Below, in pieces: positions 3,605 through 42,862 of a stretch of 64,000 nt of DNA (positions are counted from its first letter, which is position 1; each line of letters opens with the position of its first letter). Source of the DNA: an uncultured bacterium. Its GTDB lineage: Bacteria > Omnitrophota > Omnitrophia > Omnitrophales > Aquincolibacteriaceae. The translations under genes were made by a program, and so were the position numbers. The stretch covers positions 14,665 to 78,664 of the forward strand of contig CAYPIR010000002.1 in NCBI GenBank assembly GCA_964410905.1. Direction: 5' to 3'. The notes below the pieces were generated by a model that did not search any database, was not told the origin of the DNA, and saw nothing but the letters and a program-made list of their open reading frames with translations.

Positions 3605-5026
3605 ATGACATTGCAAAATGAAGATTCGTTTGAGCAACAAAAAAAACGAGTTAATATTTCATATCCTTACGGTAAACAAGACGTATCGTTTGGACAAGTT
3701 CCCGGCTCGCCTAAAAAACCATTTTTTTTAAAGTCTAAAATCAAATTCATTGTAATAGCGGTAGCGGCTATAGCTCTTATTTTTGTTGTAAAAACTATTC
3801 TTAATAAAAACAAACCTCAAAAAACCTCACTTCAGGACGCGATACAACAACAGCAGCAACAAGCAAAAGAAGCTCCCGTGGCAGTAAAGGCGTTTAAGGT
3901 TGCCCGGTTTAATTATGAAGATTCTATGAATGTTCTTGGAACTATAAAGGGCGGAACGGAATTAAAACTTAGTTTTGAAATCCCAGGCGTCATAAGTTCC
4001 ATCAATTATAAAGAAGGTGAGCGGTATGAAGACGGAGCTCTTCTTCTGTCGCTTCGCCAAGATGATATTTTGCTTCGTTTAAAACGCGCTCAAGCGGCGT
4101 TCAATAAGGCCGAGTCGCAAGCTAAAGTCACGGAAAACGAAGTCGCGGAAAACGAAAAACTTTTAAAGATGGGAGCGATTCCTCCGTCTACGGTTGAAAA
4201 GAAACGTTTGGAAATGGAGGCAGCTAAATTTGAGGCCGAGGCGCAGCGGCTTGAAATGAAGGCAAATGAGTCAATGCTTGAAAAATCAAATCTTTATGCG
4301 ACTTCATCAGGAATGCTCGGTTCTCTTAATGTCGGCGAAGGTGAAACTATTTCGCAAAGTACGCTTATTGGGACGCATATCAATATTGAATTTGTTTACG
4401 CGGAGTTTGGGATTGTGGAGCGCGATATGCAAAAAATTTCTCTTGGGCAAAAGGCCAAGGTATTTGTGGACGCGTATCCTGATAAAACTTTTGACGGCGT
4501 TGTAGAAAATATTGCGCCGCAAATTACAGGAACCAGCAGAACATCAACAGCGAAGATAAGAATAGAAAACCCCGACCGTCTTCTTTTGCCCGGTATGTTT
4601 GCGCGTGTTCGTATTCTTCTCTACACTAAAAAAGACGCGATTGTTATCCCTACAGACGCTGTTCAGGGCGGCGAAGACGAAAAGTTTGTTTATGTATTGA
4701 AAATGCCCGCTTCCAATGATTCCAAGCAAGATCCAAAACTTACCGATGCGATGGGCGGCGGCATTACGGCGCTCGCGGCGTTGGGCGCGGCGGGAAATCA
4801 AGCAAAGACATCGGGCGTAAAAAAAGTAGAGCCGACAGAAACCATTAAAAAAATTGAAGAAGGAACGGTTGAAAAACGGCCTATCGTTGTTGGTTATACG
4901 AGAACAGATTATTCTCAAATCGATGCGGGTCTTTCTGCCGGTGAGCTTGTCGCGATGACAGGTTTTGAACGCCTCGAAGACGGCAAGAAAATTCGTTTAA
5001 TTGAAACTCAAGAAGCCGAAGGGTAG
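3605..5026 (+). CDS. RND efflux periplasmic adaptor (HlyD/MFP family)
   Basis: Single N-terminal TM helix, then coiled-coil and beta-barrel/lipoyl-like segments typical of membrane fusion proteins. RBS AAGGAAGG. Lies between the TolC-like and RND permease genes. Confidence 0.75.
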   Translation: MTLQNEDSFEQQKKRVNISYPYGKQDVSFGQVPGSPKKPFFLKSKIKFIVIAVAAIALIFVVKTILNKNKPQKTSLQDAIQQQQQQAKEAPVAVKAFKVARFNYEDSMNVLGTIKGGTELKLSFEIPGVISSINYKEGERYEDGALLLSLRQDDILLRLKRAQAAFNKAESQAKVTENEVAENEKLLKMGAIPPSTVEKKRLEMEAAKFEAEAQRLEMKANESMLEKSNLYATSSGMLGSLNVGEGETISQSTLIGTHINIEFVYAEFGIVERDMQKISLGQKAKVFVDAYPDKTFDGVVENIAPQITGTSRTSTAKIRIENPDRLLLPGMFARVRILLYTKKDAIVIPTDAVQGGEDEKFVYVLKMPASNDSKQDPKLTDAMGGGITALAALGAAGNQAKTSGVKKVEPTETIKKIEEGTVEKRPIVVGYTRTDYSQIDAGLSAGELVAMTGFERLEDGKKIRLIETQEAEG

Positions 5027-36720: not shown

Positions 36721-37461
36721 GTGAAATTCATCATAGCTTCAATCATATGCTGGTTTGTGCCGTCTAAAACCTTACGAAGAAAAATAAAAGCTAAAATAGC
36801 GTTCCCAATACCGACAAGCGATAAACAACGATTAGAACTTATAGAAAAACATTTTCCCAAACTTGAAATAAAAAAGATTTTATGGGAGCAAGGGCTATGC
36901 AACAGAGTAGCTATGATTAATGACCTTTTTGTATTCCGTTTCCCTATGCATGTTTCAAGGCTTAAGGCGTATTATCGACTTTTTGAAGAGCCTCTTTTTT
37001 CGGATTTTTTTAGAGACAAATTTGGAAATCTTGTCCAGAAAATCGCCATTGTTGGCGACGACAAGTACGTTCCTTTTTTAGTAAATAATTTTATTGAAGG
37101 TAAAATGCCCGACCTTGATTTTTTAAGTAAAAATAACGAATGTTTAGAAAGATTTTCTAAGCAGCTGGCGATTTTCTTTAGAGAATGCCATTTGCTTACA
37201 TGTGATGATGTTCTTGATTTTTTTATCAAAAACAAAAGGACTAAACGAGACTTGCAAAATGCATGTTTTTGCAGACGCTTCACTCGGAGAAAAAACTATG
37301 GAATGGTGAGGTGTGATTTTTTAAATGTAATAGTAGATGAAAAATATAATATTGTTGGCGTCATTGATTTAGAGGCTTTTCAATACAAAAAAATCAGTTC
37401 AGAGATAAAGGCCTTGAGAGATGTGCCCATTATTTATGATAAAGCGATGAAATATTATTGA
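36721..37461 (+). CDS. Putative phosphotransferase-family (APH/choline-kinase-like fold) protein, degenerate catalytic loop
   Basis: C-terminal MVRCDFLNVIVDEKYNIVGVIDLEAF resembles the HGDxxxxN...IDxE kinase motifs of APH-family enzymes, but with Arg in place of the usual His. GTG start. AT-rich codon usage. Confidence 0.45.
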   Translation: MKFIIASIICWFVPSKTLRRKIKAKIAFPIPTSDKQRLELIEKHFPKLEIKKILWEQGLCNRVAMINDLFVFRFPMHVSRLKAYYRLFEEPLFSDFFRDKFGNLVQKIAIVGDDKYVPFLVNNFIEGKMPDLDFLSKNNECLERFSKQLAIFFRECHLLTCDDVLDFFIKNKRTKRDLQNACFCRRFTRRKNYGMVRCDFLNVIVDEKYNIVGVIDLEAFQYKKISSEIKALRDVPIIYDKAMKYY

Positions 37462-37554
37462 TTTTTCCTGCCGCATACTGATATTCTCTGCCTACCTCCT
37501 TGCAGTTATTTCAAAAGCTGCGGAGTTTATTTTAAAAATCGTGAGGGATATAAA

Positions 37555-37716
37555 ATGAATTGGGCGTGTCCGCATCTTGAAAATGATTTTTGTAAAAAGT
37601 TGAAGACTATATGCCAACCGACACAAAAGGGCTGCGAGCTTCATGGTAAAGTCCGAGTAAGCGTTCCCGCAAAAATAAAAGATAAAAACTCAGAGAAATA
37701 TAATGGCAGTAAATAA
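37555..37716 (+). CDS. Small Cys-rich ORF (53 aa), translationally coupled to the radical SAM gene
   Basis: RBS GAGGGA 6 nt upstream of the ATG. MNWACPHLENDFCKKLKTICQPTQKGCELHGKVRVSVPAKIKDKNSEKYNGSK has Cys at positions 5, 13, 20 and 27. Its 3' end overlaps the radical SAM start by 14 nt. Not in the ORF track because it is under 60 aa. Confidence 0.4.
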   Translation: MNWACPHLENDFCKKLKTICQPTQKGCELHGKVRVSVPAKIKDKNSEKYNGSK

Positions 37717-38494
37717 TTTTAAATATCTTTATGGCCCTGTTAACTCGTGGAGAATAGGACGTTCGCTAGGCGTTGACCCTGTTTCTGCCACTCAAAAAAC
37801 TTGTTCGTTCGATTGCATTTACTGCCAAGCGGGGAAGACGATTATTTTGTCAAAAGAACGAGAAATTTTTGTTCCAACTAAAGAAATTTTCAATGAAATA
37901 AAAAATCTCCCAGAAGTCGAACTTGATTACATTACATTTGCCGGAAACGGCGAACCGACTCTTGCGAAAAATCTTGGGGAGCTAATCCGCGGAATCAGAC
38001 AAATACGAAAAGAAAAAATAGCAGTTATTACTAACGCTTCCATGATTGACCATAAAGATGTCCAGAACGATTTGTTTTTAGCAAATCGTGTGGAAGCGAA
38101 ACTTGACGGGGTTTTGTCTGAGACGTTTTATAAAGTAAACCAGCCGGCAAGCAGCATCACGATAAAAAAAATCATAGATGGGCTTTGCGATTTCCGCAAT
38201 AAATATCAAGGCGAAATGATTTTACAAATTATGTTTGTTCAAGAAAATAAAAATGAAGCGGAAGAAATTGCTAAAGTAGCCCTTGCCATATCACCAAACT
38301 TGATAGAGGTTAATACGCCGCTTAGAAAGTGTCTCGTTTCTCCATTGAGCCCTGATGAATTGAAATCTATTGAGAATGTTTTTAAAAAAGTTAGTCAAAA
38401 TGAAATTCCTATTCGCAACGTTTACGATACGGAACGGAAAAAAAGCCAGCCATTTTCTAAAAAAGCTACCGACAGAAGAAGGGGAAGGGAATAA
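37703..38494 (+). CDS. Radical SAM enzyme (function unknown)
   Basis: CSFDCIYCQAG (CX3CX2C) preceded by GPVNSWRIGRSLGVDPV, and a GNGEPTL SAM-binding motif. 263 aa, with no SPASM or other C-terminal extension. Confidence 0.8.
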   Translation: MAVNNFKYLYGPVNSWRIGRSLGVDPVSATQKTCSFDCIYCQAGKTIILSKEREIFVPTKEIFNEIKNLPEVELDYITFAGNGEPTLAKNLGELIRGIRQIRKEKIAVITNASMIDHKDVQNDLFLANRVEAKLDGVLSETFYKVNQPASSITIKKIIDGLCDFRNKYQGEMILQIMFVQENKNEAEEIAKVALAISPNLIEVNTPLRKCLVSPLSPDELKSIENVFKKVSQNEIPIRNVYDTERKKSQPFSKKATDRRRGRE

Positions 38495-40501: not shown

Positions 40502-40888
40502 GTGAATTTTGATAAGTTGACTGCGGATATTTTAAATCTTTCCGTGGAAGAAAAACGATTTCATTCTGAGAATCGATTGGAAATTGTAGTCGCAAAGCAA
40601 AATTTTGACAATTTTCGAGATGTGTTAACGAGTTATTTTGGGACTCCTTATAAATCCGCGGGAAAATATCCAAATGGCACAGCCAAAAGAATAGCAAAAC
40701 CATATGGGGGGATTCGACGAGAACAAACCCTTTATCTGAACACTGATGAAATCAAAACCACCATTGTGCTGATTTGGCCATGGGGCTGCGGTGTTCGTGC
40801 TACGCTTAAAATTTTGATTGTTGAAAAAGCCGCTGCCGAAACCTCTTTGGGAATAATTGCGTTTTTTAAAAGCTTATTCGCTAAGTAA
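40502..40888 (+). CDS. Hypothetical protein
   Basis: ORF with GTG start after RBS AAGAGG. The TTG-extended version from 40478 overlaps the upstream gene. No recognisable domain. Confidence 0.35.
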   Translation: MNFDKLTADILNLSVEEKRFHSENRLEIVVAKQNFDNFRDVLTSYFGTPYKSAGKYPNGTAKRIAKPYGGIRREQTLYLNTDEIKTTIVLIWPWGCGVRATLKILIVEKAAAETSLGIIAFFKSLFAK

Positions 40889-40926
40889 ATATCGATATTT
40901 AAACATCGATATTTTTTTATCGATGC
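40888..40926 (+). promoter_or_regulatory. Three ATCGAT-centred palindromic repeats, candidate Rrf2 operator(s)
   Basis: aaatATCGATattt is a perfect 14-nt palindrome, followed by catcgatattt and tatcgatg at about 16-nt spacing. It ends 45 nt upstream of the Rrf2 regulator RBS. Confidence 0.45.
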
Positions 40927-40982
40927 TAATTGGACAAAAAGAGTCTGGTTTGATAAAATCTCTTATTTTTAGGAGGCTATTG

Positions 40983-41429
40983 ATGAGATTTACAAGCAAA
41001 ACAGAATACGCAGTGATATGTCTTGGTTTAATGGCGAAAAACGAGTCGTCTCACTCTGTGACTGCAAAAGAAATTGCGGACGAAGAGGGAATGTCTATCA
41101 CGTTTATAGAAAAGATTTTACAGGTTCTGCGACGTGCTGGGATTGTAGCCTCTCATCAAGGAAATCGCGGTGGGTGGGTTTTGTCGCGCGATCCAAAAAA
41201 TATTTCATTAAAAGAAATTGTTGAAGCTACTGAAGGAAGCACATTTGAGGTTTTTTGCGAAATCAAGAAGCGAAAAAAAATAGTGTGCGGACGTTCTTCG
41301 CTTTGCGAATTGAAACTCATTTGGGACGCGACCAAAGAAACATTGGATAATCTTTATCAAAATATCAATCTTGCGGATATCGCGAAAGCGATGTCTGAAG
41401 CAAATAAAAAAGTAGAGATTTTTAAATGA
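40983..41429 (+). CDS. Rrf2-family (IscR/SufR-like) Fe-S cluster transcriptional regulator
   Basis: [29 protein letters not shown]...[40 protein letters not shown] is an Rrf2 winged helix. A C-terminal C-x6-C-x5-C cluster is present. Its stop overlaps the sufB start. Confidence 0.8.
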
Positions 41430-42862
41430 GCGATGCGGATCCATTTGTTCATAAAGACTATGCTTACGGCTTTGAAACGCGTATTGATTCAGACGCGCTG
41501 CCGCGGGGGCTTAATGAGGAGACTGTCCGGTTAATTTCCAAGAAAAAAGACGAGCCTGAGTTTATGCTTGAATGGAGGCTTAAAGCGTATCGTGAATGGC
41601 TGACTATGAAAGAGCCGTCTTGGTCAACCGTCATATATCCTAAAATTGATTATCAGGACATCATTTATTATTCCGCGCCAAAGCAAAAAACTGATGTTCC
41701 AAAAAGTTTGGCGGAAGTTGATGCGGAGATTTTGAAAACGTATGAAAAATTGGGGATACCGCTTGAAGAGCAAAAACGTCTTGCGGGCGTGGCTGTTGAC
41801 GCGGTGTTTGACAGTGTTTCGGTCGCGACGACTTTTAAAGAAAAACTTAAAGAATACGGAATAATTTTTTGTTCGTTTTCGGAAGCAGTTAAAAATCATC
41901 TCGAATTAATTAAAAAATATCTCGGATCGGTCGTTCCAGTCCGTGATAATTTTTTTTCCGCACTTAACGCGGCGGTTTTCAGTGATGGTTCGTTTTGTTA
42001 TATCCCAAAAGGCGTCCGCTGTCCGATGGAACTTTCTACATACTTTAGAATAAACGCGCGGGACACGGGGCAATTTGAACGGACTTTGATTGTGGCGGAT
42101 GAGGGCAGTTATGTCAGTTATCTCGAAGGTTGCACCGCGCCGATTAGAGATAAAAATCAACTTCACGCGGCCGTTGTGGAATTGGTGGCGCACAAAAACG
42201 CGACTATTAAATATTCAACAGTTCAAAATTGGTATGCGGGCGACAAGAATGGGAAGGGCGGTATTTATAACTTTGTAACCAAACGCGGACTTTGCGAAGG
42301 CTCGCGAGCGAAAATATCGTGGACGCAAGTTGAAACCGGCTCGGCAATTACGTGGAAATACCCGAGCTGTATTTTGAAAGGAGATGAATCGATAGGGGAG
42401 TTTTATTCAGTCGCGGTTGTAAATAATCATCAGCAAGCCGATACTGGAACAAAAATGATTCACATTGGGAAACAGACCAAAAGCACAATTATTTCAAAAG
42501 GTATTTCAGCGCGATTCGGGCTAAATACGTATCGCGGACTTGTGAAGGTTTTGCCTCAAGCCGAAAACTCTCGCAATTACACGCAATGCGATTCTCTTTT
42601 GATGGGAGACCGTTCAATCGCTAATACATTCCCGACTTTGAATGTGGAAAACTCGACTTCACAAACGGAACACGAGGCTACGACTTCTAAAATAGACGAA
42701 GATCAACTTTTTTATTGCCGCCAACGGGGACTTTCGACAGATGACGCGGTGTCTTTGATTGTTCACGGATTTTGCAAAGAGGTTTTTAAAAATTTGCCGA
42801 TGGAATTTGCCGTTGAGGCGGGAAGACTTTTAGGAGTAACGCTAGAGGGCAGCGTTGGTTAA
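41426..42862 (+). CDS. sufB: Fe-S cluster assembly protein SufB
   Basis: 478 aa with a SufB/SufD beta-helix C-terminal region ([35 protein letters not shown]). Operon context. Confidence 0.9.

Follow-up and report, generated by a model that had tools for sequence, protein, structure and literature searches.

A conserved four-cysteine mini-protein, a candidate accessory of the hemerythrin/RIC/Hcp stress set, precedes a single-cluster radical SAM gene in an uncultured Omnitrophota bacterium

What is a 53-codon open reading frame (ORF) with four cysteines doing directly in front of a radical S-adenosylmethionine (SAM) gene? The question is raised by a stretch of 64,000 nucleotides (the window) from an uncultured bacterium of the Aquincolibacteriaceae (Omnitrophota; contig CAYPIR010000002.1), in which such an ORF runs into the start of a gene for a radical SAM protein (rSAM). 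A preliminary description of this DNA had proposed a peptide-maturase or cofactor pair, with the small ORF encoding either the precursor of a ribosomally synthesized and posttranslationally modified peptide (RiPP) of the SCIFF type or a small iron-sulfur (Fe-S) or zinc-ribbon partner subunit. We found the small ORF to be a genuine gene whose conserved unit is an N-terminal four-Cys module, here called Cys4, of an undescribed family. On balance, we favor the reading that Cys4 is a putative small metal or redox accessory of the hemerythrin/RIC/Hcp stress set, and that its adjacency to the rSAM gene reflects a shared stress operon, without hcp at this locus, rather than a peptide-maturase pair.

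The product of the small ORF is MNWACPHLENDFCKKLKTICQPTQKGCELHGKVRVSVPAKIKDKNSEKYNGSK (53 aa), with Cys residues at positions 5, 13, 20, and 27, that is, C-x7-C-x6-C-x6-C. The length of the ORF, the GAGGGA sequence 6 nt from the ATG, the four near-regular Cys residues, and the 14-nt overlap with the rSAM gene had all been given correctly in the preliminary description, according to the coordinates and the translation. It had also called the ORF unannotated, which holds insofar as the gene is unnamed; the exact 53-aa product is already recorded as a called gene on the source contig (147.7 kb). An exhaustive HMMER search with the small ORF against 1.84 billion representatives (1.84e9; E ≤ 1e-3) gave 40 matches, the best at 2.8e-10. 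One of them, an 834-aa repeat protein (P0146), was spurious and was set aside, leaving 39 homologues of 48 to 100 aa, mostly with the same start position. These significant small-protein homologues were decisive, and we therefore regard the small ORF as a real gene. A word-index protein search returned the small ORF alone.

Conservation, which had been suggested as a check, was found in the N-terminal 33 residues of these homologues. The mean identity to the window protein was 54% over residues 1 to 33 and 11% in the tail. In the 40-sequence alignment, C5, C13, and C20 were invariant and C27 was present in 39 of 40 sequences; W3, P6, P22, G26, L29, and G31 were at least 90% conserved across the family. 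The consensus reads M-S-W-x-C-P-H-x(5-8)-C-x-[RK]-L-[KR]-x-x-C-x-P-x-x-[KR]-G-C-V-L-x-G-K-V. The family was defined by an N-terminal W-x-C-P-[HY], C-x-[RK]-L-[KR], C-x-P, and [KR]-G-C-[VI]-L-x-G-K-V, with four conserved Cys residues. The window protein has the four Cys residues together with W3, P6, P22, G26, L29, G31, and K32, and the family-core hidden Markov model (HMM) matched it at E = 1.6e-19. The tails are not conserved, being K/R-rich in many stand-alone members and acidic in several. Because the nearest relatives are only about 50 to 65% identical over the 33-codon core, synonymous sites are saturated. In the AlphaFold model, the predicted local distance difference test (pLDDT) values were 70 to 90 at residues 1 to 31 and below 50 at residues 41 to 53, a model of moderate confidence.

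The family had no counterpart in the Pfam, NCBIfam, or PDB sequence libraries searched. No rubredoxin or zinc-ribbon Pfam match was found in any of the 40 members, and the window protein has no CxxC pair. Homology to YgbA was considered and rejected: two members matched the "nitrous oxide-stimulated promoter" family of NCBIfam at E = 0.026, and hhalign against Escherichia coli YgbA gave a probability of 0.2%. Uncalled Cys4 ORFs were also seen upstream of hcp in public contigs, at positions 886 to 1158 of locus L083, 967 to 1161 of L081, and 1061 to 1306 of L086 (family HMM E = 1e-15 to 1e-17). Therefore, the family is under-annotated in existing gene calls.

Our reading of the role of Cys4 draws on its genomic company. 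Nine metagenome loci were retrieved using the five closest Cys4 sequences. In the closest Omnitrophota relatives, the operon order was (Rrf2-PtsP-like-)hemerythrin-Cys4-hcp-rSAM-nadA-ilvD. Four loci (L088 to L091) had the order Rrf2, PEP-utilizing (PtsP-like), hemerythrin, Cys4 (74 to 81 aa), hcp, and rSAM; there, the Cys4 stop codon and the hcp ATG lie in a 4-nt overlap, and the rSAM proteins are 55 to 61% identical to that of the window. When the family HMM was applied to 87 rSAM-centered loci, an uncalled Cys4 ORF was found just 5' of hcp in L081, L083, L086, and L087 and in none of the remaining loci. The called genes of these four loci were Prismane, rSAM, NadA, IlvD, and ferritin/FprA, and the neighbors were confirmed as Prismane, NadA, IlvD, hemerythrin, and Rrf2.

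Cys4 was also found as a domain. In L092 to L096, it forms the in-frame N terminus of longer proteins (121 to 309 aa), fused to ScdA_N plus Hemerythrin (RIC type, 309 aa), Hemerythrin (236 aa), DUF2249 (122 and 126 aa), or DsrE_2 (121 aa). Outside the Omnitrophota clade, a free Cys4 gene adjoins a RIC gene (L101), overlaps a hemerythrin gene (L097), or lies in a hemerythrin/DUF2249/NifU/CGGC cluster (L100). Altogether, hemerythrin, RIC, or Hcp was present in about 12 of the 17 Cys4 contexts. An rSAM gene stood alongside Cys4 in one Omnitrophota clade only, where it lies beyond hcp; no rSAM gene was found within 3.5 to 4 kb of the homologues outside this clade. The suggested co-occurrence with rSAM orthologues thus stands for the closest relatives, which keep both genes in the same operon, but with hcp between them, and fails outside the clade. 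Cys4 immediately 5' of the rSAM gene was found at no locus other than the window, and in the strict sense the small ORF is not conserved directly upstream of orthologous rSAM genes. The better-supported partners of Cys4 are Hcp and hemerythrin-type proteins rather than rSAM. No operator-like inverted repeat was shared by the regions upstream of the operons. The literature on combinations of Hcp, hemerythrin, DUF2249, radical SAM/COG0731, and Omnitrophota gave nothing relevant, and within the limits of the libraries and literature searched, the link of Cys4 to the Hcp/RIC genes is new.

We propose the following mechanism. The first 33 or so residues of Cys4 would form a four-Cys module, probably binding a metal or an Fe-S center. 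Its recurrent partners, the hemerythrin/RIC (ScdA/YtfE) di-iron proteins, Hcp, and DUF2249, often under Rrf2, are the nitrosative- and oxidative-stress and iron-center set of anaerobes, and Cys4 is most likely a small accessory protein with a redox or metal function that serves these metalloenzymes. The rSAM would be a minimal single-cluster enzyme coexpressed with Fe-S and radical enzymes. At the window locus, without hcp, Cys4 would have come to abut the rSAM gene, its frame extending 14 nt into it. Both metal binding and a role in electron transfer are predictions. As for the small metal-binding partner subunit proposed earlier, it is plausible in kind; the CxxC of a zinc ribbon is absent, and Hcp and hemerythrin would be the better-supported partners.

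Several points weigh against this reading. The codon score of the small ORF, 0.03 bits per codon, is intermediate between genes (0.27 ± 0.11) and spurious ORFs (−0.13 ± 0.13) and is equivocal alone. No structural relative of the small protein was found by Foldseek or by a PDB profile search, and the x7, x6, x6 spacing of its Cys residues does not provide the CxxC knuckles of rubredoxins and zinc ribbons. The contexts sampled were few, about 17 loci, and L098, L099, L102 to L104, and the P0164 contig were uninformative. The usual partners, Hcp and hemerythrin, are absent from the window, yet Cys4 was kept and overlaps the rSAM gene, which fits a direct relationship between Cys4 and rSAM equally well. 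Finally, the window rSAM branches basally in the hcp/nadA-linked clade of a neighbor-joining tree, and this basal position in an unbootstrapped tree fits a loss of hcp here and an insertion of hcp in the sister lineage alike.

Neither hcp nor an hcp remnant, hemerythrin, nadA, ilvD, or nrdD was detectable in the 64-kb window. The best match of the small ORF, P0144, is the Cys4 protein of L089. The tree and this match agree on the relatives, and both the small ORF and the rSAM gene therefore descend from the hcp-linked operon type. The clade includes variants with both Cys4 and hcp (L081 to L083 and L086 to L089), with hcp and no Cys4 (L084/L085 and L002), with neither (L001, Rrf2-rSAM-nadA), and with Cys4-rSAM and no hcp (the window). 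The last five codons of the small ORF are the start region of the rSAM gene read in another frame, which is consistent with a deletion having fused a shortened Cys4 tail to the start of the rSAM gene. The rSAM ATG is preceded by a weak purine run only (AGAGAAA). Given this poor ribosome-binding site and the 14-nt run-in, translation of the rSAM gene is probably coupled to that of the small ORF.

The rSAM protein itself was characterized by profile, structure, and homology searches (Table 1). It scored 50.5 bits against PF04055, with a gathering cut-off of 29.5, and is thus a radical SAM protein; the other Pfam match, Fer4_12, was borderline. The 263-aa gene with its CX3CX2C and GNGEPTL motifs had been recognized from the start, which the profile match and the motifs bore out; the gene is intact. 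No SPASM, twitch, or RRE domain was detected with Pfam and NCBIfam. A search for homologues gave 1,488, the top ones from Omnitrophota and 50 to 59% identical. Across 24 aligned sequences (the window protein and 23 relatives), 75 columns were invariant. The only invariant Cys residues were C34, C38, and C41; G81, G83, E84, P85, T86, and L87 were also invariant, as were two family-specific motifs, YGPVxSWRxGxSLGxD, on the N-terminal side of the cluster loop, and TxxRRG, at the C terminus. The AlphaFold model had a pLDDT of 88.9, and Foldseek returned the generic radical SAM core only (DesII, TYW1, PFL-AE, viperin, and NifB; template modeling scores, 0.6 to 0.65; identity, 12 to 18%).

Table 1. 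Features of the small ORF and the radical SAM gene (positions in the window)
Feature	Position	Strand	Description	Basis
Shine-Dalgarno-like GAGGGA	37543..37548	+	6 nt 5' of the small-ORF ATG	Read from sequence
Small ORF (Cys4 family member)	37555..37716	+	ATG start, 53 codons plus TAA	ORF list
Conserved Cys4 core	37555..37653	+	Residues 1-33, MNWACPHLENDFCKKLKTICQPTQKGCELHGKV	Translation
Variable K-rich tail	37654..37713	+	Residues 34-53, predicted disordered	Identity and pLDDT
Overlap of small-ORF 3' end and rSAM 5' end	37703..37716	+	14 nt	Coordinates
rSAM gene	37703..38494	+	Stand-alone single-cluster rSAM, 263 aa, JGI label COG0731-type	PF04055
CX3CX2C motif CSFDCIYC	37802..37825	+	Residues 34-41 (C34, C38, C41)	Translation
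GGE-type SAM-binding motif GNGEPTL	37943..37963	+	Residues 81-87	Translation

Assignment of the rSAM to a known family, which had been proposed as a check, failed throughout. Every NCBIfam score was far under its cut-off (MoaA, TYW1, NrdG, QueE, viperin, and the SPASM maturases). As a SPASM or twitch peptide maturase it was rejected, the SPASM models giving 13 to 28 bits against cut-offs of 170 to 650, with no invariant Cys beyond the triad. No SCIFF maturase match was among the 25 NCBIfam families listed, and the small ORF had no NCBIfam match. TYW1 (TIGR03972) gave 22.6 bits against 317.95, with no second conserved Cys set; the "wyosine synthetase" label that JGI gives to rSAM homologues is a COG-level name. 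MoaA (TIGR02666) gave 45.1 bits against 284, with no C-terminal Cys. The glycyl-radical activases NrdG2 and PFLA gave 29.5 against 131 and 13.5 against 232, respectively, and prokaryotic viperin (pVip) gave 31.6 bits against 180 (NF038283), with 35 bits for the PADLOC pVip model. QueE was also far under its cut-off, and a PDB sequence search produced a marginal QueE match only. The rSAM, a minimal enzyme with a single cluster, belongs to a broad, uncharacterized family.

This family is found in Omnitrophota, Planctomycetota, Dehalococcoidia, Syntrophales, several archaeal groups, and cyanobacteria, and the genes upstream of it vary widely. The commonest of 96 genes flanking its members were those for Mrp/NBP35-type Fe-S carrier ATPases (16), MinD/CbiA ATPases (15), proteins with a metallo-beta-lactamase fold (8), ferredoxin domains (7), and NrdD (4). 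In another Omnitrophota clade, the rSAM gene lies directly 5' of nrdD (L016, 13 to 4035; L032, 3986 to 7825; L074, 3983 to 7637; and L035, 3992 to 7009), with an Rrf2-like regulator first in L074. A canonical nrdG follows nrdD in three of these four loci (L016, L032, and L074). The anaerobic ribonucleotide reductase there thus already has an activase of its own, and the rSAM gene next to it is an additional radical SAM gene. Small J-domain (DnaJ) proteins are encoded about 36 nt 5' of rSAM orthologues in an uncultured bacterium (L005, 760 to 1089) and in Dehalococcoidales (L051, 3656 to 3949); the two come from unrelated lineages and share a C-terminal YCANYxYSFEE motif. In cyanobacteria (L067, 4792 to 5424, and L079, 4889 to 5515), the rSAM homologue matches residues 1 to 208 only, and a second radical SAM protein of about 210 aa (Fer4_12 plus Radical_SAM) is encoded after it. 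This pairing suggests a distinct two-rSAM subfamily context.

Four-Cys proteins of another kind were found beside other rSAM orthologues. These "CKWY" proteins (63 to 68 aa; consensus, CKWFDVCPLKRFYEQGKLDKKWIExYCxGxYxxCxRYKMEE..HPDNMMPDGTI) are encoded in L003 (3302 to 3535), L006 (1515 to 1709), L007 (626 to 832), L009 (about 3819 to 4052), L012 (3801 to 4004), and L013 (3810 to 4001). Their genes overlap the start of the rSAM orthologue by 1 to 4 nt in L006, L007, L012, and L013 and lie just upstream of it in L003 and L009. NCBI labels them "uracil-DNA glycosylase," though no Pfam or NCBIfam model matches. Like Cys4 of the window, they are small four-Cys ORFs that immediately precede or run into an rSAM orthologue. 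They differ from it in gene context, which is Mrp/NBP35-CKWY-rSAM-deformylase/ARMT1 in another Omnitrophota/Auribacterota clade, and no homology was detected (the HMM comparison was negative, and the hhalign probability was 0.08%).

The recurrence of a small Cys-rich neighbor in the rSAM family, here as an unrelated protein, favors the alternative that ranks next after our reading, in which Cys4 would be a dedicated partner of the rSAM, either the electron donor to its [4Fe-4S] cluster or a donor of iron or Fe-S, and the two genes a unit that survived without hcp. Every rSAM enzyme needs a one-electron donor, Cys4 and rSAM share one operon in six of the eight distinct clade loci, and in the window the genes overlap by 14 nt and the rSAM ribosome-binding site is weak. 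However, in the relatives Cys4 is coupled to hcp, not to rSAM; hcp-rSAM occurs without Cys4 in L084/L085 and L002, and Rrf2-rSAM occurs with neither in L001. Outside the clade Cys4 lacks an rSAM gene within 3.5 to 4 kb, and in the majority of 80 rSAM loci no small Cys-rich ORF precedes the rSAM gene. We consider a dedicated partnership unlikely. A broader version, in which Cys4 and rSAM, with Hcp and RIC-like hemerythrins in relatives, would form a previously unrecognized Rrf2-controlled repair system that reactivates Fe-S and radical enzymes damaged by nitric oxide (NO) or O2 (with NadA, IlvD, and NrdD as conserved neighbors) and in which Cys4 would donate electrons or iron to the rSAM, appears less likely still. 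If it were true, the retention and overlap of Cys4 and rSAM without hcp would reveal the minimal functional core.

The company of Cys4, an NO-stress gene set, could also be that of a small NO- or redox-sensing regulator, loosely WhiB-like, with a Cys-ligated Fe-S or Zn site and a charged tail, rather than that of an electron carrier. Evenly spaced Cys residues recall the cluster loops of Rrf2 regulators, and many stand-alone members have K/R-rich tails. The tails, however, are unconserved and acidic in several members, no DNA-binding motif was detected, and fusion to enzymes such as RIC, DsrE-like, and DUF2249 proteins is seen more typically with accessory domains that have a redox or metal function. 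A sensor role is thus doubtful.

A small Cys-rich ORF that overlaps an rSAM gene is also what a RiPP pair would look like, the small ORF encoding a SCIFF-like precursor cross-linked or modified by the adjacent enzyme. This part of the preliminary description was not upheld, and we regard it as highly improbable. The enzyme lacks SPASM, twitch, and RRE domains and has the three cluster Cys residues as its only invariant ones; the SCIFF and sactipeptide models scored far below cut-off or not at all; and the rSAM family is broadly distributed with variable, housekeeping-like neighbors. Moreover, Cys4 forms the N-terminal domain of enzymes of 120 to 310 aa, and most family members have no neighboring rSAM gene. 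The least credible alternative, a chance frame or nonfunctional remnant in the rSAM 5' leader, would accord with the intermediate codon score, the absence of a homologue over 67% identical, and the word-index search that returned only the query, and can be set aside given the 39 significant homologues with invariant Cys residues and a conserved start, the family HMM match, the good Shine-Dalgarno sequence, and the expectation that about 0.8% of sequences with the local composition would contain a random ATG-initiated ORF of at least 53 codons whose end lies no more than about 18 nt from a fixed start.

The surroundings of the pair in the window were also surveyed. The region is flanked by glgP and a gene for an SH3/NlpC-P60 protein, as described earlier and as confirmed by Phosphorylase and SH3/NlpC-P60 matches. 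The sole gene related to the stress set is an Rrf2 regulator (40857 to 41429) ahead of sufB. It is followed by a SufB-like ORF (41426 to 42862) and more co-oriented ORFs up to 46763 (+), a run that begins about 2.4 kb downstream of the rSAM gene and looks like a suf operon; of its assignments, the Rrf2 one is profile-tested. On the other side lies an orphan ORF (36721 to 37461, +; 246 aa) that ranks last among the window's long ORFs both in GC content (33.2%, z = −3.1) and in codon score; it had no Pfam, NCBIfam, or PADLOC match. A stretch of it, RCDFLNVIVDEKYNIVGVIDLEAF, may loosely resemble motifs of aminoglycoside/choline-kinase-type phosphotransferases. Possibly, this ORF was inserted recently and split the Cys4-rSAM pair from its ancestral upstream genes. 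The AT-rich islet noted earlier is real for this ORF but not for the pair, whose GC content of 37.6 to 37.7% (z = −1.5) is within the range of other window genes. Between the orphan ORF and the ribosome-binding site of the small ORF, a weak terminator-like hairpin with a T-run (37500 to 37533, +) is within chance expectation. A scan for sigma-70 promoters and terminators gave nothing above chance expectation, and the 99-nt leader contained no known RNA element or unusual structure (z = −0.78).

The window pair is thus not a new kind of system; what is undescribed is the Cys4 module, a conserved four-Cys unit without Pfam, NCBIfam, or PDB counterpart that recurs, free or fused, with hemerythrin/RIC and Hcp genes. 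Small proteins routinely escape annotation or go without a name, and to our knowledge the delivery of electrons or metal to Hcp and RIC in strict anaerobes is still poorly understood. Cys4 is a candidate for a dedicated accessory in that supply. The analysis also flags a large uncharacterized single-cluster rSAM family within Rrf2-type stress operons of Omnitrophota and removes a false RiPP lead.

Several known systems invite comparison. Like the pairs of a SCIFF peptide and its rSAM/SPASM maturase, the window has a small Cys-rich ORF next to an rSAM gene in the same orientation; unlike them, its enzyme lacks SPASM and twitch domains, its peptide matches no SCIFF model, and the Cys region also occurs fused to enzymes. 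The rSAM shares the partial TIM barrel, the CX3CX2C motif, and the GGE motif of the core of PFL-AE/NrdG, TYW1, viperin, MoaA, and NifB. TYW1, MoaA, and NifB each carry a second cluster, whereas the window enzyme does not. The Rrf2, hemerythrin/RIC, and Hcp genes around Cys4 in the relatives resemble the Hcp/RIC (YtfE, ScdA) sets under Rrf2-type (NsrR-like) control, although the E. coli set (hcp-hcr, ytfE, ygbA, and hmp) has neither a Cys4 protein nor the rSAM, and the window lacks hcp and hemerythrin. In function, Cys4 would be comparable to the rubredoxin- and desulforedoxin-type four-Cys modules, which serve rubrerythrin, flavorubredoxin (NorV), and desulfoferrodoxin in the stress response of anaerobes. 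Cys4 differs from these in its C-x7-C-x6-C-x6-C spacing without CxxC knuckles and in the absence of detectable homology (Pfam, NCBIfam, PDB, and Foldseek), but like them it is a four-Cys unit of about 30 residues that occurs free or fused to non-haem-iron stress enzymes in NO/O2-detoxification operons.

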